Positions 7,998 to 58,000 of a stretch of 64,000 bases of DNA are shown here, piece after piece. Origin of the DNA: Callorhinchus milii. Taxonomy: Eukaryota. The DNA lies in contig NW_024704742.1 in assembly GCF_018977255.1 (NCBI RefSeq), positions 65,536,001 through 65,600,000 of the forward strand. Direction: 5' to 3'. The translations under genes and the position numbers were made by a program. Under the pieces are notes generated by a model that was not told the origin of the DNA, made no database searches, and saw only the letters and a program-made list of their open reading frames with translations. How positions within the stretch are numbered: the first letter of the stretch is position 1; each line of letters begins with the position of its first letter.

Positions 7998-8300
7998 GGA
8001 GTCCTGTAGCTCAGTGGTTAGAGCACTTACCTCGCAAGTGAGAGACCTGGGTTTGATTCCCGGCAGGGCAAAACCTTGCCTGATAATAATCCCGCAAGAA
8101 AAAAAACAATAATAATTTAGTCACTCAATCCACGCCTGTTTGTGGGACACTGGTATGTCCAATTGGTTGCCGCGTTTCGCCCACAAATATACAGTCAATT
8201 CACTTTACAGTATATTCTGTGAAATGCTTTGAGACATCTTGCAGACGTGATAAGGTGCTATATCAAATGCAAGGATTAATATTATATTTTATTTATTATT
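7998..8300 (+). mobile_element. tRNA(Ala-like)-headed DeuSINE with L2-type tail
   Basis: Head ggagtcctgtagctcagtggttagagc with A and B boxes, then the Deu domain (tgtttgtgggacact...aattggttgccgcgtttcgcc), then the tail aaatgcaaggatta(tta)n. Confidence 0.85.
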
Positions 8301-9965
8301 CAGCATTGTATTTATATGCTATAAGATCCCTTCTGTGTGGCCTCTCTTTTCCATTCCAAAATGCCCTGTTTTTCCTCATAGTTTATCTTGCTGACAACGG
8401 GGATCAGCCGTCACATTCTCTTTTTTGTCTCTGAGGTCTGTTCTGAAAGTTTTGTTCACATGTTTGGATCTCTTTCCTCCTGTACTCTGTACACTGCCTC
8501 TCTGTGATTGAAAAACTCTATTGATTTGCTTTGGCCAGTACATAACCAATCATTCATTCCTCAGGACCAGCTCATTGCTGATATTTTTGACTCACTATGG
8601 CTTGCAATGCGTTACTTCTTTAGAGATTGTGCATTAAATATCAGATGATAACTACCTCCTACTACCTCCACCTCCTGCCAATCTTACCCCCATTCCTCTC
8701 TTTGCTCAGCTGACTCCAAACTTCTGCACGCCCCTCATTCCCTCTGCTCCACCATTGATGGCTATACTTTCAGCCAGAACACCTCAAAACAATGGAACTC
8801 TCTGCCTCAGTCCCTCTGCCTTGCCTCCTCCTTGCCAATATTCAGATCATACCTGAAAACTTTCCTCTTGGACTGGTGCCTACGCTCACCTCCCCTCTCT
8901 CCCCAGCTTGGCGCCAGGCTCCACCACTGTTAAGCACTCCGAGACTTTATCCCGTGTGAAGAACACTATATAAATGCAAGTTGCTGCTGTTGTTGATTTT
9001 CACCCTATAGAATTGTGGCTTCATTTTCAACTGGTGACTCGTGTGAGTGAGGAAGTGTTGGATTATATTAAAAGAGTTTGAGTTACTTGAATCATTTGGC
9101 GATGTCTTTAGTGATGCTTTCTCTTTCTCCAGTGTGATGATATGGGTTCCTGATATTACAAAGGTCAGCTACTTAATGTAAAGAAAAAAACTCAGCACTA
9201 ATTAGCACCCAGGTTGGACTGAAAGTTATTTATCACTATATTCAGATAGTGCAGTACTCTTGGCTGGAGAGAGACAAGGCAGATCACCTTAACAATTAAA
9301 ACACTTAACAATGAGGCAACTCCATATTGGCTTTAATTTCCTTACATTTGACATAGCACATATAACATCAATAATGTCTCAAAGCACCACTATGTTTCTG
9401 TAGTGTTTAGTGGCTTAGTGTAGGCGAACAGAACAGCCAATTTGTGCACACAAGTGTCCCCAAAATAGCCAAGAGGTTTGAGCTAATAATTAGAGCAATT
9501 TAGAGCAAATAAAGTAATTTGCTGCTGTGTTCCAGACAGCTTTTTTACAGCTTAATGTTTATTATTGGACGACCAAACACACTAATACTACTCCTAACAC
9601 CAGTAAGTAACTTATTGTTATGATTTAGTTACAGAGCTTTATATATTAAATGGAAAAAATAAAACTTAGCGTTCCGCCTTCTGAATGCTTTTCATGTGTA
9701 AGTGGGATCTGTGGAACTCTCATTTTGTTTTTTTAATATTCTGAAGCATGGTGATGGGTTTCTGCATGTGTCAGACATCCAGCTGACCAAAAAATGCTTT
9801 ATTTTTTAGTCACTAATTTTCAGTTTACACGTCAAGTTTAAAACATGAAGTGTATTAAATGCCCACCATGTAGCAGTCATTGTTTTTTGTTGGGAAATTC
9901 CTGTTTTATATGTAGATTGGATTTATTAATTCAGTGATTTCAATTCTGCAGGCAATTTATAGCTC

Positions 9966-10403
9966 TCCGACCTACTATCCCCCTACCTACCTGCCCATAC
10001 CCTCCGTTCCTCTGGCTACGGTCTGCTCCACATCCCCCGCCCCAACCGCCCTACCATCGGTGGCCGGGCCTTCAGCCTCTCAACCCCGAGGCTCTGGAAC
10101 TCTATCCCCCAGTGCCTTCGCCGCTTCCTCCCTCTCCTCCTTCAAGGCCAGTCTCAAGACCTTTCTCTTTGACCGTGCCTTCAGCTCCCCTCTCAACTCT
10201 CTACCCCCTCCTCGTCCCCTCCCTTCCCTCCCCTCACCCTGACCATTTTCCCCTCCTCGCTCTCTCCCTTCCCTCCCCTCACCCTGACCATTTCCCCCCC
10301 AATGCTCGGGTCCTGACCCAACTGTCCAGCGCCTTGGGACGTCCTCCTGACGTGAAAGGTGCTCTATAAATGGAATCTTGTTGTTGTTGTTGTTGTTGTT
10401 GTT
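9966..10403 (+). mobile_element. L2 LINE 3' end, young subfamily
   Basis: Close similarity to 23890-24317, including the duplicated 3'UTR unit cctcccttccctcccctcaccctgaccattt and a long (TTG)n tail. A second copy of the tail lies at 10608-10772. Confidence 0.9.
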
Positions 10404-10965
10404 GAGACAGCTGAGATTTCTACCACTTATAGAGAGAGCGCGAGAGAGAACAGTGAACGTGGGTAACGGATGATCTGGGGACCCAGTGGAGGCAGATTGG
10501 GCCAGAAAAATGAAGCGAGAATTGAATTAGCTACTGGGAAAAGACATTTAATTAAGTGTTATGGCAGCTAGAAATGGACTGGTGTGATATCATTATTTTA
10601 TTTTGAGGCCTTCACCTCCCCTCTCGACTCTCTACCCCCTCCTCGCTTCCTCCCTTCCCTCCCCTCACCCTGACCATTTCCCCCCTGCTCGGGTCCCGAC
10701 CCAACTGTCCAGCGCCTTGGGACATCCTCCCGACGTGAAAGGCGCTCTATAAATGCAATCTTGTTGTTGTTGTATGTGTGATAACTCTAATGGACTACAT
10801 GTCATATGGGTACAATATAAATAGAGCAAAAATAAAACATTTTCTTAAAATGAGACACATGAGGCTATGCTTTCTAAGTATTCTGTGACATTTTTTTGAA
10901 GATTGGAGCAGTATCAATACTACAATCTAAAGTACAGATGTACCTAATATTCTAATGTTTTAAAT

Positions 10966-11260
10966 TTTTTGGGGGTGGTCAGCCGGGTGTCTGACACATA
11001 TGGAAACCCATCATCATGCTTAAGAGTATCCAAACCAAACTGAGAATTCCATGCTTCCCATCTATAAATGGAAATTCACATTTATTGGAATGGAATGCGC
11101 ACTCTCTCCCTGGAGGGATGTATCTTGCTTACTTAATTCCAGAGTGTATTTGGCACAGGCTGGCAAGAGTCAAGGCTTGGGACCCAGAGTGTGCGTTGGG
11201 GTAGTGCTAGAGTTTAACCAGCTAAAACCACCAGCTTGACGTGGAGAGCACTATCCATCA
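10966..11260 (-). repeat. Unclassified interspersed repeat with a 3' hairpin and A-tail
   Basis: Related copies at about 9742-9795, 27230-27465, 28838-28970, 55578-55860, 60596-60902, 61758-61970 and 63897-64000. Where the 3' end is present, the consensus is gatgggtttccacatgtGTCAGacacccggCTGACc(A)n. Confidence 0.75.
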
Positions 11261-12859
11261 AACTTTCCTATCGCTTGCCCACCATTAGGATTTGGGCTTG
11301 AATGGATACAAGAAGCTGAGTAGGAATAATCCTTGCCCCCAATGACTGTTAATTTGTTCAATGCTTATTTCTATTCCTGTACATTATTATTAACAATAAA
11401 CATTATACATTGTTTTTCCAATTTATTTTTGAAGTCTACCCAATAGCAACTATTGTGTTCTCATTAGTGTGAGGTAGAAGTAGTTGGAGAGAGCTTCTGT
11501 TTTTTTTTTGGATGTGCTGCTCATTCGAGTCAGGGCAGTACTTTACTACGAGATCAATATGGACTGAAAGGTCCTGCTGCTTGCAGCTCAGTCCTATTTA
11601 TATGACAGAAGCTGCTGCAGACGAATGGGCCTTTATAAATGGGAACATGGTGCTCTCCATGGGCGAATGCACTGAGGTTGTAGGAAGGTTATTTTACCAT
11701 TGCTCCGAAAGGCACACTCATCTAAATACTCCATTCAGTGGATTATAATTTCTCCCCAGATTACTCTTTTTGCATGTGACATGTTACCACATAAATAGGT
11801 CAAATACTGTACTAAACTGACTGGAAAACTGGAATCAAAAATAAGGTTGAATTTTTTAGATTTTCTAATATTCTCCATGGAATTCATTGGATAGAAATGA
11901 CGCCAATCTCCTGCTAGACTGTAGGAACCTGCTGTGGCTTCACAGAAGTTGAAAAAGAGATTGGGATTCAGAGAGTTCAGGAGGGTCAGCCTGAGAAAAA
12001 GTGGATAGTCAGAAGATCTGCAAGTTCCAAAACCTTTTGTGAATCCCACAAAATAAACACATTTGTCCCTCCCCCACCTCCCCAACCACACACACAAAGC
12101 ATACAGACATACATGCACTCACCCACCCACTCAATATAAATAGCAGGCCAGCTCAGTCACACTATAAGGCTGCTGAGCACACTGAGAAATTAATAAATAC
12201 GCACATTGCCAAAGATGCATTTAACCAGGAAATGATAGTTTAGTACAGCTTAAATATTGGATTCATCCCTTCAATTATTCATAGGACATTCAATTACCCA
12301 AATAGCTGCTTGGCACATGACTTGTGGATCTTGTCAGTTCCTGGCTTATGAGTGTGATGATGCTGACATTTGTGGCCATGAAACATTATATACACTGTGG
12401 GAGACACTCTGCTGAATACACAAGAACTGTTGTTCAGAACTTGCATGTGGCTTGAACTTATTGTTAAAAGTAACAGAGCAGAATTCATGTTTAAGTCATG
12501 CACACATCAAAGCTACTGAGTTTGTGAGGAGTTTAAATGATGCCCATGTTCTGAATAAATTTATCCATCAGTCGCTCCCACACACATTTGTATTGTCAAT
12601 GTTTTTTTGAAGGGTTATCCATTGGCTGTTTGCAGTTGGGAATTGTTGCAGGTTTATTTGACAACAGCAACTTGCATTTATGTAGTGCTTTTCATGCAGG
12701 CAGCGTCTCAGAGCACTGAACTGCTTATGAGCCAACAAGACAAGATGGGCTGGATGGCCTTCTTCTGTGTCGTAAATTTCTATGGCTCCATGATACCAGG
12801 AATTATTTATTTTAGGTGAACTGTTGTAACTTAACATGATATCACAAGAGTTGTTTGAA

Positions 12860-13345
12860 TAAAGATGGCCATTGGACCCATCTGATCTCATCCTTCCAGA
12901 ATGCCCATCCTACAAAGCATCAAGCTGCTTTTTAAATGAGTCCAGTGCCCTGGTCTCTACCAGCTTTCCTGGCAACCTGTTCCAGTCATTAATTACCCTC
13001 TGAGTAAAGAAAAACTTCCTGGCATCTGTCTGGCAATTGTCCTTTGCTACTCTAAACATGTGGCCTCTTGTTCTACTGTCTTGGTGCATCCTAAAGTATT
13101 GTTGTAAGGTTTACTTTTTCATTCCCATTTAAATCTTATGCACTTCAATGAGGTCCCTTCTGAGTCTTCATCTTTTAAGACTGAAGAGTCTTAGCTTGTC
13201 TAATCATTATTCAGAGCTCATTCTGCTGTGAGTAGCACTGTATGGGTATCTAGGTATGGCCTGACCAGAGCACTGTACAGCCTGAGTATGACTGCGGATC
13301 TAAACTCAACTTATTTACCAATGTAGCCCAGCATTGGGTTTGCCT
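12860..13345 (-). mobile_element. CR1 LINE, degraded fragment
   Basis: Reverse-complement CR1 signatures, including aagttttt ctttactcagagggtaattaatgactggaacagg and cagtgctctggtcaggccatacctaga. Confidence 0.65.
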
Positions 13346-15697
13346 CATGCTGTTTTGATCTATTGGCTGGGCCAATAGAGAAGTGCGGCCACAATTTCTT
13401 TGCGGAATCTGCTAAAACAGACCCTCTCCGCTACAAACGTGTAGAAATGCAGTGAGCACGGCCCCGGGCCTCTGTGCGCTGCTGCCAGCTATTTACTCGC
13501 CTCTACTGTGGGTGGAGCAGCTCTGCATGTGAATGCCTGGTGCAGCACCAGTGGGAAATGGGCTTCGCTCTCCCCAAGGTCCTGCTGTTGAGATTGTCTG
13601 TTTCAAGTCTGATGGAATGCTTAACATTGAAAGAAAGAGTTTGATCTTTTATATAGTGCCTTATATCAAAATGTCTTGGATTACGAGACAGACAAATGCA
13701 GTACTGTTTTAGTAGGCAAACATGGCATTCAGTCTGTGCAATGTAGTGTGAACTAAGTGGGGGAGATGAATGACCTATTCATTTGGAGGATTTTTGACCA
13801 GGATACCCAAATAAATCCCCTTCTCTTTTTGAATAGTGTCACAGGATCTTTAATATGCACCTGAACAGGCAGATGAATTCTTTGTTTATCACAGTGCTGG
13901 CCAACTTTTATGGTTGGCCGGCAAAATACATTTTCTTGGTTGATTATTTCCTGATTTGTGACATAAATCAAGAAATATTTAATCAAGNAAAAACTGAAAA
14001 AGTGCTACCGATCGAACACGCACTTACCTAGACTAATGCGAATATTTGGGGGCCGCTTCTCAATGGGCCACTCCTGCCCATGATCACAGGTCGGCCATCA
14101 CTGGTTTACCATCTTATGTGAAGGACAATATCTCTCATAATGAGGCGCTTCTCCCAGTACTGCATTTGAGTGTCACAATAGACTATGAGCTTGTCAGGTG
14201 CCAGTCTGGCTGAACTGATAACACTATAACTTCTGAATTAGAAGGTTGTTTGTTCAAACCCCACATCAGGTCTTTGAACTCATTTTGTGGAGGTACTGCC
14301 CTTCGATTGAGACATTAAACCAAGGTGCTGTCTTGCCACTGAGGTTCAGTTGGATGTTAACGATTGCATTGCACTATTCGAAAAGAAAAGGGTCTGCCCT
14401 GGCCAACAAGTCCCCAGATAAATTGGTCATTCACTTCTTGGCTGTTTGTGGGACATTCATCTGTGCAAATTGGCTATTGCATTTGCCCATAAAATATGCA
14501 GTCACTCCACGGTAAATCCTGTAAAGGGTTTTGAGACAATTTGATAAGGCACTATATCAAATGCAAGGATTATAAATCCAACTGTGGGGCTTGAACCTTT
14601 TGATCCAGAGGATGATGTGCTACAAATTGCCAGGAAGACACATCTGATCAGCAGTTATGTTAACCGATCTTTTGTATGAATGGTTTGTCTTCATACTGTC
14701 ACTTTCGTGCAGTGAAAGCATGCGAACCAGCATGAGGGCCAAGCCAGATCCTGTCATCAATCAATGTCCACAAAGGTACATCTACCCGACCTTCCAGCAA
14801 GTGTGCCGTGATAGCAATCATGTCCAGTTTGTGAATGACTTCATTGTCACATATGCAGGGTACTATTCCTTGGATTTATTTTTCAAAAAGCTAAATACAA
14901 CTAGAACAGCCATTCATTAAAATGCAGTCTTAGGCTCAATGTGTTTACTGAATAGCAATTCCTTCTTCAGTGTGCAACCTGCTCTAATGAAACAATACAG
15001 ACAGCATGCCTAATCATCCTCATGGAAACTGGAATTATAACATCACTAAAGAAGGAAAGAGAATTTACAAAGCCAACTAAAGAAATCTTTCAACCATTAA
15101 ATTCAACCAGGCATAAGGACTTTCACTTACAAAGAAATAAAGAAGTTTGAGCTTTTTTCACTGGAGCTAAGAAGGTTATGGAGTGACCCGATAGAGGTTT
15201 TCGATATTATGTGAAGGCCTTTGGTCATGTCATACATGTGAATGGCATTGTGTGGCAATGCTGCGCCACTATAGATTGCGTATTCGCAAGAATGAAAAGA
15301 AGTAAAACACCAAGATTTTCACAGACAAAATCTGTGACTGAACTATGGGCATGCTCCTGAAGTGAAAGGTGTTAAATAAATGTAAATTTGTTGTTGTAGT
15401 TGTTGTCAGCTAGAGGTCTTCTGTATCAGAACTCATGTCTGAGGGCAAATAGAGTGTGGGAGTGCAAGGAATTATGTGTATAGATATATATACATATATT
15501 AGACATTAGTCCTACCCTCCTTCTTTATGTTTTTTTACCTTCTGATTTATTTTTTTAAAATAATTATGCTGACATGATTCCATGGCAGCCATATTTATGT
15601 ACAATAAACCTCACATAAGTCATATCAGTTGGGACCATACATTTAATATGAGTTAAGCAAAGTTTGAGTTATGTCAAACTTGCATACAATATAAACT

Positions 15698-16019: not shown

Positions 16020-18469
16020 AATCAACATCCACAAAGCCACAACCACCTAACCTTCTAAATCGCCTTGATAGCAGTATATCCAATTTGTGAATGACACGAG
16101 TTGAGACTGATACTTTTTTTTCTAAAACCAAACCCTTTTCCTCTGATTATTGTACTAATTTGTTCTGGGCCAACTCGTGACTATCTTTCTGGTTGGGGGT
16201 GTAAGTGGATCTTCTTGGGGTTAAGCTGCTTCCAAGCATGGAATATTGGAATTGATTTGATTCCCTGTAGACTGGTGCCTGAGCCACATGGGTCTGCAGT
16301 ACTAGTTACTGTTAGTGACAGACCAGTCAGTCTGGCTTATCAGCGGGAGTTGTTAATCCGTCTAGGACAACCTTTCACATCAGGGCTGTGGCTTACAGTG
16401 ATAAAGCAAGAGCCAAACGGGAAGAATTTAACTGTTTCCTGTGACTGAACACAGTCTGTAAATCGAACCTGGGACTTTCCAGGTTTGTATGTGTCAAGAT
16501 CAGAAGGAATGTTTACATATGGAGAAAATATTGTGATTTACACTTCCAATTATCAACAAATGGTGGCAGTATGAGGCAGCAGTCAACTTTTGTTTGAGGT
16601 GGGGAGGTGTACCATTTAGTGCCTACCACAACTTTAACATTGTATTTACTGGTAATTCAGCTGGCAGCAAAAAAACAAGCGATTAAGCTGGAAAATATCC
16701 CTATTATATGAAAATGTTTGAATAAATTTGGCATGCAGGCTTGTTTTTGAGAAAACAACGAAACTGAAGGGATTTCCATGAATTGCTCAGAAACGAAATA
16801 GCAAACCAGATGTTATCAAGGCAAGCCAGTACAAGCAAAGTAACTTGTTTTAGCCATTCAGATCCTGTTTAGTAAAAGTACCTGGTGGCATTGTTGCAAG
16901 AACAAATATTGAACTGCTTATCTATTTACTATTTGTGTAGTGTATACATTTGTTGCAAAACCCAAAGCCTAACTTGGTGGTGAGGAATTTAGCTTGACTA
17001 TGGAAGAGAATTGAGATGTGATTATTATCATTTTGTATTTTGTAGACAGAAGCGGCAGACAATTTGTGCTCACCAATGTCCCACAAACAGCCAATAATAA
17101 TAATAATAATAATCCTTGATATAGTGTCTTATCACATGTTGAGATGTCTCATAGCACTTCACAGAATATATTGTAATGTAGATTGATTGTGTATTTTGTG
17201 GGCAAAGTGCGGCAGCCAATTGCGCACAGCAGTGTCCCACTCAGCTGTGCATTGAGTGACCACGTTTTTTTTAATAAAATGAATGAACAATTTTACCTGG
17301 GGGATTGTTGGCCAGATGACCGGGAGAAACTCCCTTCTCTTTTCAAAGGGAAATAAGATAGAGGTCAAATTCGGCTAGGATTGTGCTAGTTTCTCGGCAC
17401 ATCATAGAAAAATGTTTCTGGTGGTTGGAGGTTATCTCCCAACAAAAGCAGGAACCACTCAATGTGTTAATTATCTCAAGTTTTTTTTCAATACATGTGC
17501 TAACTAGCATCATAGGTCTTCACACATAATACACTGCAATTTTCAAACCATTGTGTTACACAAGCAAGGGTACAGTTCAAGGTTATAGGAGACCCATGGT
17601 CTGCTTCAATGTGCGATGAGCACCTGTTAACTTAAATACTTAACAAAAGCCTTTGAGAATTGTTACAACTGACATCAACGATTAGAATAGAAGGTAACAT
17701 ATATTCTCCCTCCTCAAAAAATCTATTGTAGACACAGATTTGTTTCTAATTAAATTAGGAGGCGTGACATGGGCTTAAATTCAGGGAAGATGAACAAAGA
17801 GTTTAGATTTAGCTCTTTTCCACACAGAGTAGTGAATATGTGGAATAGGCTGCCCAGAGAGACAGCGGAGGCAGATTGTTGGCAAATTCAAGAGGAAAAT
17901 AGATAGCTATTTGGGGGAAGAATTCAATTGGTGGGTATTGGTAGTCTTGTCTAGGGCAGTATTGTCCAATAGAAATTGCTGACTAACACTACCACACTAT
18001 CTTAGCCACAGGCACTAATTTTAGTAAACTGTAGCCTTACATACACTCACACAATACAGGTAAATGTATTTCACGTGTATGTTTACATGTGTATTCGCTT
18101 AACAAACATCTATCACCATTCAGTGCGAAACCTTGCAGTCATCTCTTTATTTTTCTTTTACAAGACGTGCCAGACCCACCCCATCCAGAGCACGGTTGGC
18201 TACTGTTTGCCCTTTGCCATGACATGCCCTGTTGGAGCTGTTCACTATTGCTGGGCTTGCTTTCTTCTGCTGACCTGGAGCGCTTATAGCTGATCGATAT
18301 AGCTGACCACGATTGACAGCTCCTCTCTCCATACAATATTGTGTTTGTTTCCATTGTTTTCACCTGTGTTAAACACCGGTTTAGCAGGTAACCAATAAGC
18401 AGTAACCAAGGAAGTAAAAGCACACATGATCAAAAACCACTGGCACATGCTGCTTTTCATATTACCATT

Positions 18470-18744: not shown

Positions 18745-20868
18745 AACAACACAACAACAACAAGATTCCATTTATAAAGCGCCTTTCACGTCAGGAGGAC
18801 GTCCCAAGGCGCTGCACAGTTGGGTCATGACCCGAGCAGGGGGGAAATGGTCAGGGTGAGGGGAGGGAAGGGAGGGAGCGAGGAGGGGGGAAATGGTCAG
18901 GGTGAGGGGAGGGAAGGGAGGGAGCGAGGAGGGGGAAGAGAGTTGAGAGGGGAGCTGAAGGCTCGGTCAAAGAGAAAGGTTTTGAGACCGGCCTTGAAGG
19001 AGGAAAGGGAGGAAGCGGCGAAGGCACTGGGGGATGGAGTTCCAGAGCCTGGGGGCTGAGAGGCTGAAGGCCCGACCACCGATGGTAGGGCGGTTGGGGC
19101 GGGGGACGTGGAGCAGACCGGAGCCAGAGGAGGGCAGGTAGGTAGGGGGATAGTAGGTTGGAGAGGTAGGAGGGAGCGAGGCCGTGAATGGCCTTGTAGG
19201 TGAGGATGAGGATCTTGAAATCAATCCTCTGGGGGATGGGGAGCCAGTGGAGGCGAGCGAGGGTGGGAGTGATGTGGTCCTGGTGCGGGACAGTACACGA
19301 GCTGCAGAGTTCTGAATGACCTGCAGCTTGTGGAGGGAGGTGGCGGGAAGGCCGGCGAGGAGAGAGTTCCCATAGTCCAGCCTTGAGGTGACAAAGGCGT
19401 GAACCAGGGTTTCAGCAGCGTGAGGGGTGAGGTAGTGCCGTAGTCTGGCGATGTTCCGGAGGTGATGGAAGGCGGTGCCAGTTGTGGTGCGGATGTGAGG
19501 GAGAAAGGACAGCTCAGGGTCGAACAAAACGCCGAGGTTCCTGACTGGCTTTGAGAGGTGGAGAGTGCAGCCTTGGATGCTGATGGTGTCAGCGCCTGAG
19601 GTGCGGAGGCGCTGACGTGAGCCAATCAGGAGGGCCTCGGTTTTTCGCACGTTGAGCTGAAGAAAGTTGTCTCTCGTCCAGGACTCGATGTCGGACAGGC
19701 AGCTGTCAGGACATCGGTGGTCGTGGAGTTGAGAGTAGAGGAGGAAAGGTAGAGTTGGGTGTCATCCGCATACATGTGGAAGTTAACTCCATGTCTGCGG
19801 ATGATGTCACCCAGGGGGAGCATATAGAGGGTGAAGAGGAGGGGACCAAGGACAGAGCCCTGAGGGACACCACATGAGACAGTGCGGGGGGTGGAGGAGA
19901 AGCCATTCGTCGAGACAAAATGAAGACGGTGAGAAAGGTACGACCTAAACCATTCAAGGACAGTGCCTTGAAGGTTGAGGTGGGAGGACAAGCGGTGGAG
20001 TAGGATAGCGTGGTCGACCGTATCGAATGCTGCCGATAGGTCGAGGAGGACGAGGAGACAGAGGGAGCCCTGGTCACAGATGGTCAGGATATCATTGGTG
20101 ACCTTGACCAGGGCAGTTTCTGTGCTATGGGCAGCACGGAAACCTGACTGAAGGGGTTCGAAAAGAGAATGGGTGGAAAGGAAAGAGCGCAGTTGGGAGG
20201 CGACAACTCTTTCCAAGACCTTGGAGAGAAAGGGGAGGTTGGAGATGGGCCGGTAACTTGATAGCTGCGACGCATCAAGGGAGGGTTTTTTCAGGGTGGG
20301 CGTGATGATGGCAGTTTTTAATGGAATGGGGACAGAGCCAGAGGAGAGGGACAGGTTGATGATGTCAGTGATATGTGGGGCAAGAAAGTGGAGCTGGGAG
20401 ATAAGGAGTGGAGTGGGGATGGGGTCAAGGGAGCAGGTGGTTGGTTTTAGGGATAGGATGAGTTCAGTGACAGAGGGTGGGGAAACGGGTACGAAGGTGT
20501 GTAGGGGAGGATGGGTAGGAGTCGGAGTGTGGGAGGGAAGGGGTGGGTGGTGGGTGGAAGTTGGAGGGGAAGTGACCGCGGAGCGGATTCCCTTGATCTT
20601 GGATTCAAGGAAATCCAGCATCTCCTCGCAGTGAAGGTTGGAGGAGATGACCTGCGCGGGGTGGCGGGGGGGACGGAGGAGTCGGGTTGTGGTGGAAAAC
20701 AGTAGCCTGGGGTTGTTCTTCGCCTCCAGGATTATCCTGGAGTAGAAGGACGACTTGGCCGAGGCTAGAGTGGAGCGGTAAATTTTGAGGAGGTCCAGCC
20801 AGATATGTCGGTGGACCGTTAGGCCAGATTTGACACAGGTGCGTTCAGCGGCCCGCACCTGGCTTTTC
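18745..20868 (-). mobile_element. L2 LINE, 5'-truncated (~2.1 kb), with the reverse transcriptase domain and a frameshifted ORF2
   Basis: ORF 19626..20897 contains [53 protein letters not shown] and YADD. The C-terminus is in ORF 18967..19650. The tail is (CAA)n on the + strand at 18745-18762. Confidence 0.95.
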
Positions 20869-22129
20869 AGTGACACAAGGTCAAAGTACACATGCATCCG
20901 CAGTGCGAATATGAGTATTGAGATACATACCCGATAACAGTGTCTATTCCTTATTTTTTATTTACTGAACAAAAATGCAGTTTTGCCACATCTGGATTCC
21001 CAATTTGCCACATGTGACTAGTGGCTAGCGTATTGGACAACCCTGTTCTAGGGTCATTTAGTTTTTTTTCCTTTGGGCTGATGAATCACATTCCTGGTCC
21101 TGTATATTTCTACATTTCTAATAAGTTCTGGAGCGATGAGATCAGATGGCCAGAAAGACTTTCATCATCCAGACCAATCTTGTAATATGATATTCCTTGT
21201 ATCTGACACGCACCCATGATAGTGAAACGTCTGAAAGGGCTTCACAGATAAGTGGAATGACTGCATTTGTAAGCAAATGTGGCAACCAATTTGCACAAAG
21301 CAAGGACTCATAAACAACCATGAAGTGAGTCACCACTTCATTGGTATAATTTAATGGTATGCTTTAATGTACCCATCCAAATTAAGCAGCATTAACTGTT
21401 ATTAGGACAAAATAGAATGCATGAACAAATCCAACTAAATAAGATTTTTGTTTCCAGAACACAGATTGTATTATGTGATTAGAAACTGATTAAGTTGAAT
21501 GGTACTGGCACATCTACAAAGCCTTTTCTTGTTTGTTATACAATCTATTTATAGTGCAGATTTGATTCTGAGGAGGAGAGGGATTAACTCAGGTCTCTGA
21601 GTTGTATCAACCTGAGAGATACCGTATTTTTAGTCTTGAGTTTTGATCCTTGAAGGGTTATGACAAGAGAGAAATCAACACAAGATGCAGTGAAGCACTT
21701 TTCTTACTCAGTAACTCCAGGGAAAAGTTAGTGAAAAATTCATCTCAGGAATGCCAAATATTTGAAGCACACCAATTGTTAAATCTGCCTGTTTTTATGA
21801 CTGATTTAAAAAACGATTATATAATTCTGAGTCGAATAAAGTTCAACAAATTGAAGAGTCAGTTGGCATGAAACTAATGTTGACGATAACTGGAGGCACT
21901 AGCAAAATTGCATTTTAAAACCAATGCTCCCTGTACTCCTTTTTGTACCGTGGGGACCTGAGTGTTTCCCCTCAGTGAGCGGTGGGAAGCGGGAAAGCTT
22001 TTAACTGAGCACGGATTCTGCACAGCTTTGACAGACACTGACCTACACTACATAATTATAAAAGTAAAAAGTTAAAATGCCGATCCAGCTGCTGTGATTA
22101 GAAGAATCCTGTCCATTCCATTCCCTGAC

Positions 22130-23072: not shown

Positions 23073-24317
23073 TCAAGGCACTGTCCTTGAGTGGTTTAGG
23101 TCGTACCTTTCTCACCGTCTTCACTTTGTCTCGACGAATGGCTTCTCCTCCACCCCTCGTACTGTCTCATGTGGTGTCCCTCAGGGCTCTGTCCTCGGTC
23201 CCCTCCTCTTCACCCTCTATATGCTCCCCCTCGGTGACATCATCCGCAGACATGGAGTTAACTTCCACATGTATGCGGATGATACCCAACTCTACCTTTC
23301 CTCCTCTACTCTCAACTCCACGACCACCGATGTCCTGACAGCTGCCTGTCCGACATCGAGTCCTGGACGAGAGACAACTTTCTTCAGCTCAACGTGCGAA
23401 AAACCGAGGCCCTCCTGATTGGCTCACGTCAGCGCCTCCGCACCTCAGGTGCTGACACCATCAGCATCCAAGGCTGCACTCTCCACCTCTCAAACCCAGT
23501 CAGGAACCTCGGCGTTTTGTTCGACCCTGAGCTGTCCTTTCTCCCTCACATCCGCACCACAACTGGCACCGCCTTCCATCACCTCCGGAACATCGCCAGA
23601 CTACGGCATTACCTCAACCCTCACGCTGCTGAAACCCTGGTTCACTCCTTTGTCACCTCAAGGCTGGACTATGGGAACTCTCTCCTCGCCGGCCTTCCCG
23701 CCACCTCCCTCCACACTGCAGGTCATTCAGAACTCTGCAGCTCGTGTACTGTCCCGCACCAGGCTCCGCGACCACATCACTCCCACCCTCGCTCACCTCC
23801 ACTGGCTCCCCATCCCCCAGAGGATCGAATTCAAGATCCTCATCCTCACCTACAAGGCCATTCACGGCCTCGCTCCCTCCTACCTCTCCAACCTACTATC
23901 CCCCTACCTACCTGCCCGTACCCTCCGTTCCTCCGGCTCCGGTCTGCTCCACGTCCCCCGCCCCAATCGCCCTACCATCGGTGGTCAGGCCTTCAGCCTC
24001 TCAGCCCCGAGGCTCTGGAACTCCATCCCCCAGTGCCTTCGCCGCTTCCTCCCTTTCCTCCTTCAAGGCCGGTCTCAAAACCTTTCTCTTTGACTGTACC
24101 TTCAGCTCCCCTCTCGACTCTCTTCCCCCTCCTCGCTCCCTCCCTTCCCTCCCCTCACCCTGACCATTTCCCCCCTCCTCGCTCCCTCCCTTCCCTCCCC
24201 TCACCCTGACCATTTCCCCCCTGCTCGGGTCATGACCCAATTGTGCAGCGCCTTGGGACGTCCTCCTGATGTGAAAGGCGCTTTATAAATGGAATCTTGT
24301 TGTTGTTGTTGTTGTTG
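23073..24317 (+). mobile_element. L2 LINE, 5'-truncated (~1.25 kb), near-identical inverted counterpart of 18745-19971
   Basis: Contains [13 protein letters not shown] and YADD, with the same two frameshifts, 3'UTR duplication and (TTG)n tail as the minus-strand copy. Confidence 0.95.
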
Positions 24318-30346: not shown

Positions 30347-31451
30347 AAAGCTGCTGTGTAGCTGATCACCAAAGGTTTACTAGGACCCAGCTGTACCGCA
30401 GACAGTATGGAGGTCTAATGCCCTTTATAAGGAAACCTGGAAGTACATTGCACCATGTTGACTGCTCAGATGACGTTAAAGATCCTATGGAACTATTTGA
30501 CAAAGAAGCTTCTACTGGTATCATTCATTTCATAGTTGTTTGGGACATTGCTGGGCACAAATGAGTTGCCACATTTGCTTACAAATACACAGTCACTATA
30601 TTCTACAGAACACTGATATCTTTGAGACGTTTCAATGTGATAGGGCGCTGTTTTATTATTTAGTTATTTCCTGAGTCTCCCACCACGACCGACTACAGCC
30701 TGCTTCTTTATGGTGCAACACCCTTAATACATCATAATTATTTATATTGTGAACGTGTTTGGTTTTATGTCTCTTTCCCTATTTTAATGGTTCCTTTTTT
30801 TATTATCTCATTAAATAAACACTGCAGTATAACTATGGGCATCAAACTCACCCCCGAGTGAGTGATGCTTTAGCAGATATATTTTTACTAAATTACTGGA
30901 TCTGACTCCATGAATGAGCATTACACTTGGCATTGGGATTAAGTGTCAGCCAGGCTCAGTTGGTAGCACTCTCGCCTATGATGCACGGCTACAACATATA
31001 AAAAAGGAAGGGTGCCACCTCCAAAAATGTAACATACCCCCAGCACTGCATTGGAGTGTCAGTCTAGACTATGAGTTATGAGATTTTATAAGTCCCAATG
31101 TACGGCTTGAATCCACAATCTTATGATTCAGAGACGAGTGTCCTGCCAACTCAGACAGCTACATATTATGAAATATATTGCGAGCAAATTATGATTAGAG
31201 ACAAGGGACCCCAGGAAATTAGATCTGCAGTGACAGGTTATAAGTCCTCCAAGACACTGCCCCGAGCAAGTTGTAGTTGTAGTAAGCTCAAAATTTGTAG
31301 TGTTCAATAATTTAATGTTGCTGAGAATTTAGTGTCAGTTATAATTTACCTATGATAATTTACCGCAGATTATATTTTACCGTAATAATTTACCATTGGT
31401 GATCATTTATAAGTAATAATTTACCAGTGATAATTTAACGTTGGTTATAAT

Positions 31452-34015
31452 CTGGGCCAATAGAAAAATGTGGAAATATTTGCCAAAAATTGTGGGGAGA
31501 TTTGGAAAATTACGGGGGTTGATTGGTGCTGTGGACGTACATTTTACTGCCAAACTACATTTTTTCACTTTATTGATAAAAACTAAACATGAGGAAATAA
31601 CACACGTTAGATTGTTGCAAAAAAAATATGAATTGCTTCTTTAATTAGGTGACCCATTTTTTTTGGTAGGGGGGAAGCGGGGGTCACCAGTGAGGCTACA
31701 GGAGCTCACCACCCCCTGCCTCTCAGGGCCCAGCACTGCACACAGACACAGAAACAGAGACCCAGAGAGCGAGAGACACACACACGCAGAAACCCAGAGA
31801 GGGACACGCACAGAGACAGAGATCCTGAGAGAGACACACACACACACACACACACACAGACCCACAGAGACACACACACACACACACACACACAGACCCA
31901 GAGAGGGACACACACAGAGACAGAGATCCAGAGAGAGAGACACACACACAGAGACCCAGAGAGAGAGAGAGACACACACACAGACCCACAGAGAGACACA
32001 CACACACACACACAGACCCAGAGAGGGACACACACAGAGACAGAGGTCCAGAGAGAGAGACACACACACAGAGACCCAGAGAGAGAGAGAGACACACACA
32101 CAGACCCAGAGAGGGACACACACAGAGACAGAGATCCAGAGAGAGACACACACACAGAGACCCAGAGAGAGACACACACACACAGAGACCCAGAGAGAGA
32201 CACACACACACAGACCCACAGAGACACACACACACACACAGACCCACAGAGAGAGAGACACACACACAGACCCACAGAGAGAGAGACACACACACACACA
32301 GACCCACAGAGAGAGAGAGAGACACACACACAGACCCACAGAGAGAGACACACACACACACACACACAGACCCAGAGAGGGACACACACAGAGACAGAGA
32401 TCCAGAGAGAGAGACACACACACAGACCCAGAGACCCAGAGAAAGAGAGACACACACACAGACCCAGAGACCCAGAGAGAGAGACACACACAGAGAGACC
32501 CAGAGAAAGAGAGACACACACACAGACCCAGAGACCCAGAGAGAGAGACACACACAGACCCAGAGAGAGAGACACACACAGAGAGACCCAGAGAGAGACA
32601 CACACAGAGACAAAGACCCAGAGAGCGAGAGAGACACACACACACACACAGAGACCCAGAGAGAGACACACACAGAGACAGAGACCCAGAGAGAGAGAGA
32701 CACAAACACACAGAGACAAAGACCCAGAGAGCGAGAGAGACACACACACACACACAGAGACCCAGAGAGAGAGACACACACACACACACACAGAGACCCA
32801 GAGAGAGAGACACACACACACACACAGAGACCCAGAGAGAGAGACACACACACACACACAGAGACCCAGAGAGAGAGACACACACACACACACAGAGACC
32901 CAGAGAGAGAGACACACACACACACAGAGACCCAGAGAGAGAGACACACACACACACACAGACCCAGAGAGAGAGACACACACACACAGAGACCCAGAGA
33001 GAGAGACACACACACACAGAGACCAAGAGAGAGAGAAACACACACACACACAGAGACCCAGAGAGGGACACACACAGAGACAAAGACCCAGAGAGCGAGA
33101 GGGACACACACAGAGACAGAGACCCAGAGAAAGAGAGACACACACACAGAGACCCAGAGAGAGAGAGACACACACACAGACCCAGAGAGAGAGACACACA
33201 CAGAGAGACCTAGAGAGAGAGAGACACACACACACACACAGACCCAGAGAGAGAGACACACACACACAGAGACCCAGAGAGAGACACACACACACACACA
33301 CACACAGACCCAGAGAGAGAGACACACACAGAGACCCAGAGAGGGACTCACACAGAGACAGAGACCCAGAGAGAGAGACACACACACACAGAGACCCAGA
33401 GAGAGAGACACACACACACAGAGACCAAGAGAGAGAGAAACACACACACACACAGAGACCCAGAGAGAGAGACACACACACACACAGACCCAGAGAGAGA
33501 GAGAAACACACACACACAGACCCAGAGAGAGAGACACACACAGAGAGACCCAGAGAGAGAGAGAGACACACACACACAGACCCAGAGAGAGAGACACACA
33601 CAGAGAGACCTAGAGAGAGAGACACACACACACACAGACCCAGAGAAAGAGACACACACACACAGAGACCCAGAGAGAGAGACACACACACACACAGAGA
33701 CCAAGAGAGAGAGAAACACACACACACACAGAGACCCAGAGAGGGACACACACAGAGACCCAGAGAGGGACTCACACAGAGACAGAGACCCAGAGAGAGA
33801 GACACACACACACAGAGACCCAGAAAGAGAGAGAGACACACACACAGAGAGACCCAGAGAGAGAGAGACACACACAGAGACCCAGAGAGAGAGAGACACA
33901 CACACACAGAGACCCAGAGAGGGACACACACAGAGAGAGACCCAGAGAGCGAGAGAGACACACACACACACAGAGACCCAGAGAGAGAGACACACACACA
34001 CACACACACAGACCC

Positions 34016-34048
<33 letters not shown>

Positions 34049-35353
34049 CCCAGAGAGAGAAACACACATACACAGACCCAGAGAGAGAGACACACACACA
34101 CACAGACCCAGAGAGAGAGGGACACACACACAGAGACCCAGAGAGAGACACACCACACAAACAGAGACAGAGACCCAGAGAGGACCACACAGAGAGAGAC
34201 ACACAGGGACAGAGACCCAGGAGAGAGAGAGAGACACACACACAGACTGTGTCAGAGAGAGACACACACACACACACAGACTGTGTCAGAGAGAGAGACA
34301 CACACACAGAGACTCAGAGAGAGACACACACACACACACACACACACAGACCCAGAGAGAGAGGGACACACACACAGAGACCCAGAGAGAGACACACCAC
34401 ACAAACAGAGACAGAGACCCAGAGAGGGACCACACAGAGAGAGACACACAGGGACAGAGACCCAGAGAGAGAGAGAGAGACACACACACAGAGACGCAGA
34501 GAGAGACACACACACACACACAGACCCAGAGAGAGAGACACACACACACACAGACCCAGAGAGAGAGATACACACAGAGACAGAAACCCAGAGAGGTACA
34601 CAAACATACAGAGACAGACCCAGAGAGGGACACACACAGAGAGAGACCCAGAGCGAGACACACAGAGACAGAGACCCAAGAGACACACACACAGAGACAG
34701 AGACCCAGAGAGACACACCCACACAGACAGAGACCCAGAGAGAGACAGATACCCAGAGAAGGACAGTCAGAGAGAGAGACCCAGAGAGAGAGACACACAC
34801 ACAGAGACCCAGAGAGAGAGACACACACAGAGAGAGACACACACAGACCCAGAGAGAGACACCCAGAGACAGAGACCCAGAGATACACACACACACACAC
34901 AAACCCGGAGACACACACACACACAGACCCAGAGAGAGACACACACAGAGTCACAGACCCAGAGAGAGACACACGCATAGACAGAGACCCAGAGAGAGAT
35001 ACACACATAGACAGAGACCCAGAGAGAGACACACACATAGACAGAGACCCAGAGACACACACAGACACAGAGGCAGACACATAGAGACAGACAGAGACAC
35101 AGACACACAGAGACACACACAAACAGAGACACACAGAGAGACACAGACAGAGACACACACTGACACACACACAAACAATCACAACAGTGGGGCCTCTGAG
35201 TGAAGCCCATTTGCCATTTGCGCCACACCGACCTAAGTGATGTCAAGTAAACAGCCAGGAGGCCAGCTGGCCAGAAACTTCCTTCACAGAGGTTTATAAC
35301 GCAGGGCAACATTTCTGGCAGAAAAAGTGCGCCTGTCTTTTCTATTGGCCCAG
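31452..35353. mobile_element. Putative non-autonomous DNA transposon (TIR element with hAT-like 8-bp TSD) carrying a satellite
   Basis: Left TIR CTGGGCCAATAGAAAA (31452-31467) and right TIR TTTTCTATTGGCCCAG (35338-35353) are perfect inverses. The flanks are GTTATAAT (31444-31451) and GTTATAAC (35354-35361). The same ataatttaccagtg minisatellite continues on both sides. Confidence 0.75.
31739..35185. repeat. Compound (CA)n/(GA)n satellite with a GACCCA-punctuated unit
   Basis: Repeated GACCCA-(GA)n-(CA)n units with variants (gagacagagacccag, gagatccag, gagcgag). The + strand is almost free of T. Confidence 0.97.
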
Positions 35354-35760
35354 GTTATAACTTACCAGTGATAACTTGCTGGTGATATTTTACCAGTGAT
35401 AACTTGCTGGTGATAATTTTCCTGTAACAATTTACCAATGATAATTTACATTAGATTTGCTTTATTGAAAACTGTTACGTTTTGCCCAGATTCCCTGGGC
35501 CCCTCAGCATATTTGATGATTACATAAATAATAATGATTGTCTTTAATTGAATTCATATTTGCTCAGATCACACTTCATCTTAGCCAGACGGTCACGGCT
35601 GTTCAAAAATGCCTCTACAGAATCTACAAATCTTCCAAGAATATTATCTTTTTTAACACAACATAAGATTTATTAATAACAATTCAGTGAAACTATAATC
35701 TTGTTATTCATTGGAATTTTCAGCTCTGGTTTACAAACTTATCTATCATGTTTATTACAG

Positions 35761-35818
35761 AACATCCAAGCTATCCCAACACAGCCAATTCAAATCACCA
35801 AGCAGCAGTACATTCAAG
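35761..35818 (+). CDS. POLN: DNA polymerase nu, coding exon (NIQAIPTQPIQITKQQYIQ-G)
   Basis: Acceptor tttattacag and donor CAAG|gtaata; 58 nt, phase 0/1. It continues KHP|NIQ as in human POLN 'KHPNIQGISKHPIQIT'. It is too short to appear in the ORF track. Confidence 0.92.
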
Positions 35819-35859
35819 GTAATAATCTGCAATCTGTTCAGACTGGATGAGGAGTTATA

Positions 35860-36783
35860 AGAACATAAGAATTTGCTAGGTGAAAAAAGACCAAGGTCCA
35901 TCTAGTTCGTCTTCCACCATCAAGCCAGTCGCTTGACATGTTGTGTCCCAAATTGTATACTGTATCCTGTGATATTATTTTCTAGCAGAAATCTATGTAA
36001 TTTGTTCTTGAAACAAACAACACTTTCTGCTTCCATTGTCTGTCTCCCTAGGGAGCCTGTTCCATAAGTTTACTACTCTCACTGAAGTAGTATTCCCACA
36101 AATTTGGTCTGAATTTACTTCCCTTCAATCGCATGCCATGCCCTCCGGTTCTACTGTTCAGTACAAAAAAAAATAGCTTATTATGATCTACATTATCTAG
36201 TCCCTTCAGAATTTTAAAGACTGCAATCATATCGCCCCTCAACCTTCTCTTCTCCAGTGTGAACATGCCCAGTTTATCTAATCGCTCTTTGTAGTCCAGT
36301 CCTTCCATCCCCTCAAACATTTTGGTTGCCCTCCTCTGAATCCTCTCAATCGCTTCAATATCCATTTTTATACTGCGGTGACCAGAACTGTGCACAGTAT
36401 TCCAAGTGTGGTCATACCAGTGATTTATAAAGTGGTAGGATTATCCCACTATTTCGGCTCAATATTGCTCTTTTAATACAGCTCAGCATCTGGTTTGCTT
36501 TACTCACTGCGACTGAGCACTGTTGCAATAGCCTCAATTTATTGTCAATCAGGATCCCCAGGTCCATTTCATTTTCGTACAGATTATTTTTTTTCCATTT
36601 AAATAATAGTCCTTTCCTGGATTTTTTGTCCCCATGTGAAGCACTTTGCATTTCTCTACATTGAATTTCATCTGCCATCGATGAGGAGTCATTAGCTTTA
36701 TGTGATCTGCAAAGTTAGCCACTGTGCTCGTGACACCTAGCTCCAGATTGTTTATGAAGATATTAAATAAAAGAGGTCCCAAA
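35860..36783 (-). mobile_element. CR1 LINE ORF2 C-terminal part with 3' end
   Basis: ORFs 36549..36782 (GPLLFNIFINNL...FAD), 36412..36678 (LPLYKSLV) and 36048..36395 (IERIQRRATKM..LEKRRLRGDMIAVFKIL). The tail is (ttcttatg)n on the minus strand at about 35860. Confidence 0.9.
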
Positions 36784-39323: not shown

Positions 39324-39401
39324 GAAAGGAGCCAGAGACAGTAACCATCTCTCCAAGGAACATGTTTGTTTCATCGGACGGGTGGACATTTTTAGCTGCA
39401 G
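39324..39401 (+). CDS. POLN: DNA polymerase nu, coding exon ([27 protein letters not shown])
   Basis: Acceptor ctctgcttgtag and donor GCAG|gtaacc; 78 nt, phase 1/1. Matches POLN '[26 protein letters not shown]'. Confidence 0.95.
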
Positions 39402-49675: not shown

Positions 49676-50145
49676 AAAAATCCATACTGAGTTTCATTAC
49701 ATCGCTAGTTACCTACAAATAGTTCCAAGATTTAATAGTAATAATCCTTGCATTTGATATAGTGCTTTATTACAACATTGAGACGGCTCAAAGCGCTTCA
49801 CAGGATATACTGTAAAGTGGATTGACTGTATACTTGTGGGCAAAATCTGGCAGCCAGTTGCGCACAGCAATGTCCCACAAACAGCCATGCAGTGAGTGAC
49901 CAATTGAACAAAAAAAAATTCTGTGATTGTTAGCTAGGACACCGAGAGAAACTCCCTTCTCTTTTCGAATAGTGCCACCATGAATGTTTTTTAACCAAAA
50001 GTAGCACCATTAGCAAATTTGTCTTCCATTGGTTTCTGAGCTCAGTCAAGATTTAACTCATTATTTTGGCATGACAATTTGAGATTATGCATCTCAACAG
50101 CAAAACTGAGTTACTCCCGGGGTAGGTTACACACAGATATGACTG

Positions 50146-50146
<1 letters not shown>

Positions 50147-50205
<59 letters not shown>

Positions 50206-50253
50206 TGACTGACTGACTGACTGACTGACTGACTGACTGACTGACTGACTGAC

Positions 50254-50302
<49 letters not shown>
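50147..50302. repeat. Compound tetranucleotide microsatellite (GACA)14(GACT)13(GATT)12
   Basis: Read and counted directly from the sequence. Confidence 0.97.
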
Positions 50303-54888: not shown

Positions 54889-55003
54889 ATTTTTCCCAGG
54901 TTGAACTACGTATCCTAGCACATCTCTCCTCAGATCCAGAGCTGCTGAAACTTTTCCAAGATCCAGAAACATCAGATGTTTTTTCTATTCTCGCTTGTCA
55001 GTG
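54889..55003 (+). CDS. POLN: DNA polymerase nu, motif A exon ([39 protein letters not shown])
   Basis: Acceptor ttttgttatttcag and donor AGTG|gtaagt; 115 nt, phase 1/2. Contains family-A motif A, DFSQxELR, with the catalytic Asp split across the splice junction. Confidence 0.97.
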
Positions 55004-58000
55004 GTAAGTGCCATATCTGATTCTTTAGAATTTTTTTTTAATATGAGTCATTCCCAAATTACTGTGAGCCAGCTGGCCCCCTGCCAGCCGACACATAAAC
55101 CAAGGCAAATAAATCATCCGGTAATACAGGATTCTGGGAGGAGGTTAATTAGCACCGTCTAGTCTCATGCAGTCTGTTACCTTGTTCATCTTTAGAGCAA
55201 AGACCCAAATCTGGCCTGTGCAATCAAATCTGATCACTCCAGTGACTGACTTGATTCTATTTCATGGTAGCTCCCCACGCTTTACTCCGAGATACCCTTC
55301 ATCCAAACCGTTTGGGTGATTAATTCAGACAAGCGGAGAGGAGAGACATTCCACCTGGGATTTTTCAAAGGTTCCTTTAAAAAATTTAGAAAACTGTCTT
55401 CAAAATTAAAACTGAATTAAAAAATTCTCCAAAATTGGCACATTCTGAAATGCTAAGGTACAAAGTCCAAGTCTAGACCCAGGCAAAATTTTGTCTCCCT
55501 GATTGTACATCGATTTCAAGATTGTTCTCAGTAAACAATATTAATTCAACATTGAAGCTAATATAGAGTGGCCTTCATTTTTTTTGAGGGGGTCAGCGGG
55601 TGTCCAACACATGTAGAAAGGTAGTACCATACGTAATAGTATTTTGACAGACAGTTCCAGGTATGCATGAAAATTTCCCTGTTTCTGGAATGCTGTGGGC
55701 ACTCTGTCCAGAGGGACACCCCAGTTCATCTAATGGCAAGTGCCTAGGCTTGTGGACTCCAAAGCCTGTGTTGGAGTACTGCTGGAGTCTAACCCAGCTA
55801 AAACCATGCAACCTTCCAAGCACAATCCAGCAAGCTTCCTGCTGCTTGTCCAGCTAGGTCCATCCTACCATTTAGGGGTTTGCTTTGCATGGTTAACAGG
55901 AGCCAAGTGGGAAGAATTCCAGGTATGGCCTTCCGGACTAAGCCTATATGGAATTTGAAGCTTCTGGACATCATACTATCAAGGTACTGATTACCTCAGA
56001 AATATCAGGGAAAACTCCATTTTGAGCTCCAGCGTTATAAACAAGGCCACACAAATGCGGACGTGCAAATCATTTTTATCATAAAATAATAACTTAACAA
56101 TGTAATTATGTTAAAGCTTCAAGCTATATTATTAGGTCATCAATACTCTTTGGGTGAACAGTCAAAGAAAGTGATGCTAATGAAGGAAGTTCCATTCTGA
56201 TATGAAGTCTTCTGTTGACATTTAGTCCCCATTACAATGTGCGAACGGAGCTCTTGGCAGATGCATGAATGGGTCATTTTGTGTATATCAGCTTAACTCA
56301 ACAACAAAATCAGATAAGTGACAAAGTACAGATCGCAATTTTTCACCGAATATATATTTTGCAATATATCATTCCATGTGCATTTTGGACAATAATTTGG
56401 ACTAATTAAAAGTTGCATTTAGGGATACAAATTAAAAGTGAATGCTACAGTTAAAGATCCTATGTCACTACTCGAAAAGAGAAGGGAGTTTTCCCCCAAA
56501 TAAAATTGATCACTCGTTTCATGGCTGGTTGTGGGACAACGTTATGTGCAAAAATGCTTCCACGTTTGCCTATGAAAACAGTCACTCCATTTCACAATAA
56601 ATCCTGTGAAGCATTTTGAGACATCCTTCTGATGTGATAAGGTGCTTTACCAAATGCAAGGATTATTATTGTTATTAACTACATAAGTAAATCCTGAGTG
56701 AGTGCGAAAAGCACAGCCCAGTGATAAGTTATATATTACATTGATACATAGGTAAATGAAGGGGGGAAGTACATTGATTGATACTGGTGTCAGACTGCTG
56801 AATTACAGATTACTGAAGTAAGCGGAATACATTAGTTGCATATTGAAGGGACTGAAATTTGCAGTTAAAGAGCTTGCAACATGCAATGGTTCATGTTCTG
56901 CTGGGACCGTAGAGTTGTTTTATGTGGATTGCGTTGCTGAATAATGCAGATTGCGATGTTGAATTGTTATTCCATAGTCTCTCTTCAGTTGCCTTTGGGA
57001 GCCGGGGAGAAATCCTAGGTTCATTTTCTTGGAAGATTTAGTTGTGATATTCACTTCCCTCAGAGAATTAAATAAATTGGGAAGAATCAACAATAGTGCA
57101 AGTTGTGCATGGCCTAACGTGAACGATTGCCTGGGACACTGCTGTGCGCAATTGGCTGGCTCGTTTCGCCCACAAAATATACTGCCAATTCATTTTATAG
57201 TATATCCTGTGAAGCGCTTTGAGACGTCTCGAAGACCCGATATCAAATGCATGGATTATTATTATCAATCAGCCTTTTCTCATTCCAAATTTCTTATGTC
57301 CTTCAACAACAAAGTGCACTTATATAGGGCTTTTCACAAAATCTAAATGTCTCAGAGGCTCTTAACAGATATGTTGGGGAGCACCGAGCAGGGAGAAGTG
57401 AGGACGTTGATCAGAAGCATGGGTTTTGAAGGCTGGGAGAAATGAACCAAAACAAACAGATTTTTGAAAGAGTTCCAGAAAATAAACAGGAGCACAGTGA
57501 GTAAAGGCTTTGTCAGCAATGATCGGACAAAGGTTGGTGGAGTCAAGCAATAGGCCAGTCAGAGGAGCAGAGGATAAAGGCAGGAGAATAGAGCTAAATG
57601 GAATTGAATGTGTAGAGAGGAGAGAGAGCATAAAGTGATTTGAAGGTCAGGGCAAGGTTCTTAAAGTGGATCCAATGGGAGCCGGTGGAGCCTGGTAAGG
57701 GATGTGCGGAACGTAATGTGGGAGCGAACATGGGCTTCACTATTTAGAGGTTATACTCATGAGCCTTAAACAAGCAAGCTGAAACTCATGTACTAGTGGT
57801 TGTTATCAGGAGAAGTGAGGTTCTGAGGCCTCATATTCTTACCATTATTGGTTTGCAGTTTAATTGTGCAGAATTTTCAAAATTCTTAAATTTAGTCTTA
57901 ACTTGGATTCTGGTTTTCCTCAGTTCTTAGACTTTCCAAGATTGTAAATTGTAAGGTCTTAAGGCTAAGACCAAGAGATATTTTGAGCATAGACTGTTTG

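Follow-up and report, generated by a model that had tools for sequence, protein, structure and literature searches.

The 64,000-nucleotide stretch of the Callorhinchus milii genome analysed here (contig NW_024704742.1, positions 65,536,001 to 65,600,000; hereafter the window) holds, at 31452-35353, a transposon-like element with a long tandem array at its centre. The element lies within a 35.6-kb intron (144-35760) of the plus-strand POLN gene, and all features below are on the plus strand unless stated otherwise. Upstream of the intron, an exon at 40-143 corresponds to residues 363-384 of DNA polymerase nu (4xvi; E 1.1e-6), and downstream of the intron an exon at 54889-55003 corresponds to residues 430-466 (E 9.2e-12), which bears out the POLN location given in an earlier reading of the bare letters (the original prediction). 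The intron would end at a candidate 58-nt exon (35761-35818), placed from the residue gap and the splice phases, with its acceptor 407 bases past the element. Together with a further candidate exon at 39324-39401 it would supply 45 residues, precisely the number missing from 4xvi between 384 and 430, in fitting phases; alone, exon 39324-39401 gave no match, and exon 35761-35818 is too short for a search of its own. The 58-nt exon has a poor polypyrimidine tract, and its skipping would shift the reading frame.

The ends of the element are 16-bp terminal inverted repeats (TIRs), complementary at 16/16 positions: CTGGGCCAATAGAAAA at 31452-31467, a CTGGG-ended variant, and its exact reverse complement at 35338-35353. 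Flanking them are two 8-mers, GTTATAAT at 31444-31451 and GTTATAAC at 35354-35361, which are 7/8 identical with the boundary at 31452 and which we read as the left and right copies of a target site duplication (TSD). Inside lie a left arm of 287 bp (31452-31738), an array of 3447 bp (31739-35185) and a right arm of 168 bp (35186-35353) that ends in the right TIR. Letter by letter, these ends are as originally predicted (perfect 16-bp TIRs and an 8-bp repeat with one mismatch, at the same positions), the predicted lengths of ~290 bp, ~3.45 kb and ~170 bp agree, and the claim that no transposase lies inside fits the Pfam search, which found 0 families in 4/4 arm-spanning frames scanned. Rfam gave 0 matches over 30900-35900. 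An exact inverted pair of 16 appeared in 1/300 dinucleotide shuffles of the 2554 non-array bases around the element, and the element's pair was the sole one in the window of the form C[AT]GGG[CT]C...G[AG]CCC[AT]G, at most 6 kb apart, with 8-mer flanks differing at no more than 2 positions. At the left end stand three AAAAT(T)RYGG motifs ~22 bp apart (31465-31515; Tandem Repeats Finder (TRF) period 22 at 31463-31509). These 3 motifs in 109 bp compare with 0.011 predicted from the remainder of the window, a contrast inflated by the derivation of the pattern from the left arm itself. They are candidate transposase-binding repeats. A link between this CGG-like subterminal motif and the CGGBP-type hAT-19 transposases described in PMC8097297 was considered and is left as a lead only.

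The element splits an older 14-bp host minisatellite of the ATAATTTACCAGTG type, as had been claimed. Its left half occupies 31336-31443 (TRF period 14, 6.9 copies, 31336-31437) and its right half 35362-35449 (TRF 35357-35449), and BLAST aligns the two halves at 76% over 101 bp (E 1e-13). After removal of the element and one 8-mer the minisatellite stays in register, with an uncommon GTT variant on both sides.

The array itself is a compound minisatellite with higher-order duplications. TRF reports period 30 and 107.7 copies, and two ways of splitting it give 108 or 113 units of the form GACCC(AG)n(AC)m plus a short tail, with a median of 30 bp and one orientation throughout. The earlier label of a giant (CA)n/(GA)n satellite is a misnomer for such a ~30-bp unit in ~110 copies, in which no pure run exceeds (AC)12 or (AG)8. 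The 3447 bp consist of 1596 A, 1010 C, 809 G and 32 T. Long open reading frames over the array (up to 1143 codons) are a by-product of a strand nearly without T. Exact duplicates of 117, 106, 94, 80 and 79 bp occur inside the array at offsets of 34, 402, 244, 424 and 474, and variant units cluster, with 3 repeated 3-unit strings, a number that 0/1000 order shuffles reach. One-off unit types, counted in five bins from left to right, make up 5/22, 5/24, 1/25, 9/23 and 16/19 units. The array thus has a freshly turned-over interior and an old, decayed right edge.

The left arm was followed into public contigs. A run search with 30500-31738 returned 17 runs, 4 of them with at least half the words and all from one organism-A study, and the contigs of 4/17 runs (X7, X8 and X10 from organism A, X3 from organism B) were aligned on 31100-31825 at 80% likeness. 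The unique flank has one flat depth in each of the three organism-A runs (8.0, 10.5 and 10.7), and summed depth at 31450-31624 is 157-2698x that of the flank in 3/3 organism-A runs and 1,729-14,305 in organism B. This shows that the left arm is an abundant family in both organisms. Among the matches listed, loose ends stand directly before 31452 in 62, 70, 59 and 57 contigs (4/4 runs). The flanks before this point agree at only 0.40-0.41, yet their consensus ends in GTCATGAG (three runs) or GTCATGAC (one run). The sharp end, the varied flanks (agreement ~0.4) and an arm depth far above that of the flank are those of a dispersed multi-copy element and, with the hAT-like terminus and target preference described below, they uphold the predicted non-autonomous DNA transposon. 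They also settle the left end. Because the flanking 8-mer is a palindrome, the ends are ambiguous from the window alone, and two other readings fit there: a 24-bp TIR without target duplication, and a perfect GGTTATAA duplication with uneven ends. The loose ends place the left boundary at 31452, and both are therefore rejected.

A second terminus is present in the same family. In X8 and X10, another 42 and 38 contigs begin at 31454, their consensus being ...(C/G)TCATGAC-CA, i.e. a CAGGG terminus. CAGGG and CTGGG termini coexist, with CT on both ends of the element, on a lone arm elsewhere in the window (13367-13368) and in 57-70 contigs per run, and this suggests that CTGGG copies form a subfamily that was mobile despite its non-standard second base. 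The palindromic (G/C)TCATGA(G/C) appears in 6/6 flank consensus rows listed at 31452/31454, which are one-sided and not independent of each other, and TNA precedes the 8-mer in 4/6 of them.

Within the arm, 31630-31690 is a variable block in which depth drops by a factor of about 100 and several contigs lack the block or have other sequence in its place, a pattern pointing to several deletion subfamilies. Depth at 31650-31674 is 4-6x flank in organism A, with none in organism B, and a single X7 contig (31615-31799, depth 7.4, 16 differences) appears to be the one that matches the window there. Depth is 876-1328 at 31737. Organism B has two joints that link the arm to 31738 and 31746 (sides of 31 and 36) and that call for caution at 80% likeness. 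These observations suggest that family members carry some CA/GA tract behind the left arm, of a length and unit that contigs do not let one read. At 4/16 listed sites, 53-60% of X7 family depth has CG and the window has TG, and the longest paralogous pieces listed differ by ~10-18%. With its CpG decay, TSD mismatch and paralogue divergence, the left arm looks old, and the contigs of the 4 runs hold no cloud of near-identical siblings.

The right arm has a relative in the window, a diverged lone right arm on the minus strand (13367-13602) with a TIR matching at 15/16 positions. Scored without its TIR it reaches 54; the best of 498 control windows scored 36. It also starts with CTGGG, and similarity to the element stops at the expected start of the CA/GA tract. 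Neither a partner end nor a left arm for it was found in the window.

The element is most likely a non-autonomous hAT transposon of the Ac type; from its ends and target, hAT is likely, not proven. As described in PMC3942097, hAT elements have 8-bp TSDs and TIRs of 10-25 bp, and the element, with its 16-bp TIR and 8-bp TSD (7/8 identical), falls within these sizes. The hAT target is given as NTNNNNAN in PMC3878927. Both GTTATAA(T/C) at this locus and (G/C)TCATGA(G/C) in the family fit an nTnnnnAn target. Within hAT, this pattern belongs to the Ac family. For Tol2, PMC8151067 describes a weak target consensus, TNA(C/G)TTATAA(G/C)TNA, whose leading TNA recurs in the 4/6 family rows noted above. 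The reconstructed empty site matches it at 10-11/12 specified positions, and outside the element only 19 and 2 of 59,987 other positions reach 10 and 11 matches. The Buster target does not fit: according to PMC3517528 it is nnnTAnnn, and the central bases are AT at this locus and in the family consensus. In the same paper the TIR of Mar starts with CAG(G/A)G. The element has traits of a miniature inverted-repeat transposable element (MITE), being non-coding and of an abundant family, and its arms total 455 bp, but it measures 3.9 kb. Searches for described relatives gave little. A 22-base degenerate end motif had 0 matches in metagenome and viral contigs, collections not expected to hold fish DNA; 11 papers contain one of four 12-mers of the TIR, none of them on transposons as judged by title and abstract start, a search that lay outside Repbase, Dfam and most supplements; and the TIR strings had 0 matches in the supplement of PMC8097297. 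The papers listed on shark or chimaera hAT families held nothing on the element, which does not establish it as undescribed.

We consider it probable that this is an older non-autonomous hAT (Ac-type) insertion in which a short CA/GA tract borne by the family expanded after insertion. A transposase made elsewhere would have bound the 16-bp TIRs and the subterminal repeats and moved the element in trans. The structure of the site shows an insertion into a palindromic AT-rich 8-mer of the existing 14-bp minisatellite, with duplication of the 8-mer. Family members would carry the short tract behind the left arm, as the contigs partly indicate, and one GACCC(AG)n(AC)m unit would then have been amplified to the ~110 copies seen in the array. 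The route may have been dinucleotide slippage together with duplication of units and blocks, the latter by gap repair or unequal exchange. According to PMC3878927, deletions and duplications arise inside DNA transposons when the gap left by excision is repaired, and any of gap repair, slippage and unequal exchange may have acted here. Given the CpG decay of the arm and the lack of near-identical siblings, growth in place from a short tract is favoured. The original prediction had the element either seeding or carrying an expanding satellite; a short family-carried CA/GA tract that expanded at the locus is the version we favour over carriage of a kilobase array. Dispersal of the array through the genome, also suggested there, is unsupported so far, given that the window's own version of the inner left arm and the array start reach only ~1-6x single-copy depth and the arm at 13367 is arrayless. 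Most likely the element is a neutral intronic passenger in POLN, and the array is probably a length-variable locus; nothing here shows a host function.

Several points weigh against this account. The usual hAT start is YARNG, from which CTGGG at both ends departs, and it is the CAGGG-starting contigs (38-42 in two runs) that fit. No transposase partner was found and the arms are without a Pfam match, so that the superfamily is read from the ends. The AAAAT(T)RYGG motif has 0 matches in the element's own right arm. Within the host minisatellite, 5 further 8-mers lie at most 1 mismatch from the left TSD copy, and these near-copies make the TSD less telling than the same repeat would be in unique DNA. 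The contig evidence covers the left end, with one-sided flanks, and its loose-end, joint and difference figures refer to the matches listed. Summed contig depth is not copy number, contigs cannot assemble arrays or show their length, and contig joints at likeness below 95 call for caution; the depth of 1-2x flank at 31825 is that of a single base at the edge of the aligned stretch. One X7 contig (31118-31502), with 1 difference, joins the flank to the first 51 letters of the arm, and contigs of X8 and X10 extend 28 and 20 letters into the arm, under the 31-letter bridging rule. No empty allele was seen among the matches listed in 3/3 organism-A runs, from contigs that drop rare variants, and most of the flank has no contig depth in organism B, a gap that bears neither way on the orthologous site there. 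The empty site is for these reasons reconstructed, not observed.

The closest rival keeps the same hAT element and changes the order of events: the kilobase array was already inside at the jump, and the CTGGG subfamily moves long arrays genome-wide. At 3.9 kb the element is within the normal hAT size of 2.5-5 kb given in PMC3942097, both TIRs are perfect, and short-read contigs would not reveal long arrays in other copies. CA/GA-rich loose ends do occur behind 31785 in 4/4 runs (27-39 contigs among the matches listed), but the 4 consensus rows listed for them show no GACCC hinge, and they may be unrelated microsatellites. The decay of the arm (CpG loss, TSD mismatch) is older than the exact 80-117-bp duplications in the array, the window-type inner arm is at low contig depth and the lone copy at 13367 has no array, and we regard a pre-expanded array as rather unlikely.

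It is less likely still that the element belongs to another superfamily with 8-bp TSDs, most plausibly P (or Merlin or MULE), its history being otherwise equal. P elements have the terminal consensus CANRG, which CAGGG fits, and the target GTCCGGAC, which fits nTnnnnAn. An 8-bp TSD and a short TIR are found in P as well and do not discriminate, hAT and P both being described as inserting into 8-bp sites (PMC3878927). The extended target, however, resembles the published Tol2 consensus, and hAT is reported as present in all vertebrate lineages surveyed (PMC4350176).

Very improbable, in our judgement, is a composite in which ends from two family copies were joined, by independent insertions or by deletion via the tracts, with the TSD a by-product of the minisatellite. 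Near-copies of the 8-mer in the host minisatellite, the existence of lone arms (13367) and tracts that could promote deletion would allow it, but the minisatellite keeps its register from one side of the element to the other and carries the uncommon GTT variant in both halves, the same CT variant stands at both ends and all array units share one orientation. An assembly error as the main source of the array's length is hardly credible: although no contig aligned here spans the array, it has ordered variant units, a decay gradient and no N, its exact internal duplicates do not exceed 117 bp, which is not what a collapsed or doubled assembly would show, and an X7 contig confirms the left junction.

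If the favoured account of expansion in place is true, the element is an example of a known process, the growth of tandem repeats inside non-autonomous DNA transposons. In the miDNA4 MITE of Xenopus tropicalis (Scalvenzi and Pollet 2014, as reviewed in PMC9659126), a satellite monomer was born inside the element and amplified. Like it, the POLN element is a non-autonomous TIR element with an internal satellite monomer amplified in tandem. The two differ in that miDNA4 is described as Tc1-mariner-derived (PMC9659126) whereas the ends and target of the POLN element point to hAT, in the unit, which in POLN is a compound of two dinucleotide runs, and in the genome-wide spread of arrays that the same review describes for miDNA4, unlike what is seen for the POLN element. 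Xmix MITE/Xstir of Xenopus laevis and the lepidopteran (GTCY)n MITEs likewise hold tandem or simple repeats inside a non-autonomous DNA element, with other units and hosts and with a superfamily not listed as hAT in the table of PMC9659126. In Drosophila virilis, internal repeats of the foldback TIR element Tetris also seed kilobase arrays (the TIR-220 satellite), according to PMC4079207, but these are 220-bp repeats inside long TIRs, in contrast to the 16-bp TIRs and central array of the POLN element. Among hAT elements, Tol2 (Ac family; PMC8151067) shares the 8-bp TSD, the short TIR and a palindromic T-N-A-(C/G)-T....A-(G/C) target, and, of the hAT MITEs Mar and Vege (PMC3517528), Mar starts with CAG(G/A)G like the CAGGG family copies but has the Buster-type nnnTAnnn target, which does not fit the family consensus of the POLN element. 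The likeness to Tol2 and Mar is one of ends and targets by description, not of sequence alignment.

The elephant shark lineage is reported as poor in DNA transposons (PMC4350176). The family may be an unannotated repeat worth adding to libraries, and an abundant family with a common seed tract would be a natural experiment on the frequency and the speed with which a compound microsatellite turns into a minisatellite. A bolder version, which we hold to be doubtful, has the CT-ended hAT subfamily seeding many independent kilobase arrays genome-wide, perhaps touching POLN splicing. In hundreds to thousands of copies the CA/GA tract would switch to the GACCC-hinged 30-bp unit and balloon to kilobases, which, if true, would provide many dated, independent replicates of the microsatellite-to-minisatellite transition. 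The 3.4-kb CA/GA-rich tract in the pre-mRNA, ending 575 bases before the 58-nt exon, could then bias the splicing of that exon. The splicing factor hnRNP L binds CA repeats.

Other features of the window are minor. At 13359-13382 the 8 bases before the lone arm, TCTATTGG, mirror part of its TIR and form a short hairpin, TCTATTGGC-TGG-GCCAATAGA, which may be chance or the remnant of a second end; the DNA upstream of this arm is presumably, by eye, a CR1-like fragment of a long interspersed nuclear element (LINE). Two stretches weakly similar to the left arm, at about 55520-55605 (inner left arm, score 57, the best outside the element) and 16890-16930 (score 44), are AT-rich, gappy and without a TIR, and were set aside; the first is possibly a very old relative, or chance. 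The same POLN intron holds an inverted pair of LINE pieces (18751-19971 and 23073-24309), 97-98% identical over ~1.2 kb and 3.1 kb apart, which from their open reading frame we take to be L2-like, and a LINE copy at 19626-20957 that retains a 443-codon reverse-transcriptase-like frame. At 50142-50300 a compound tetranucleotide microsatellite passes from (AGAC)n to (TGAC)n to (TGAT)n by a single base change per step, and at 62431-62519 there is a 43-bp tandem duplication, 97% identical.

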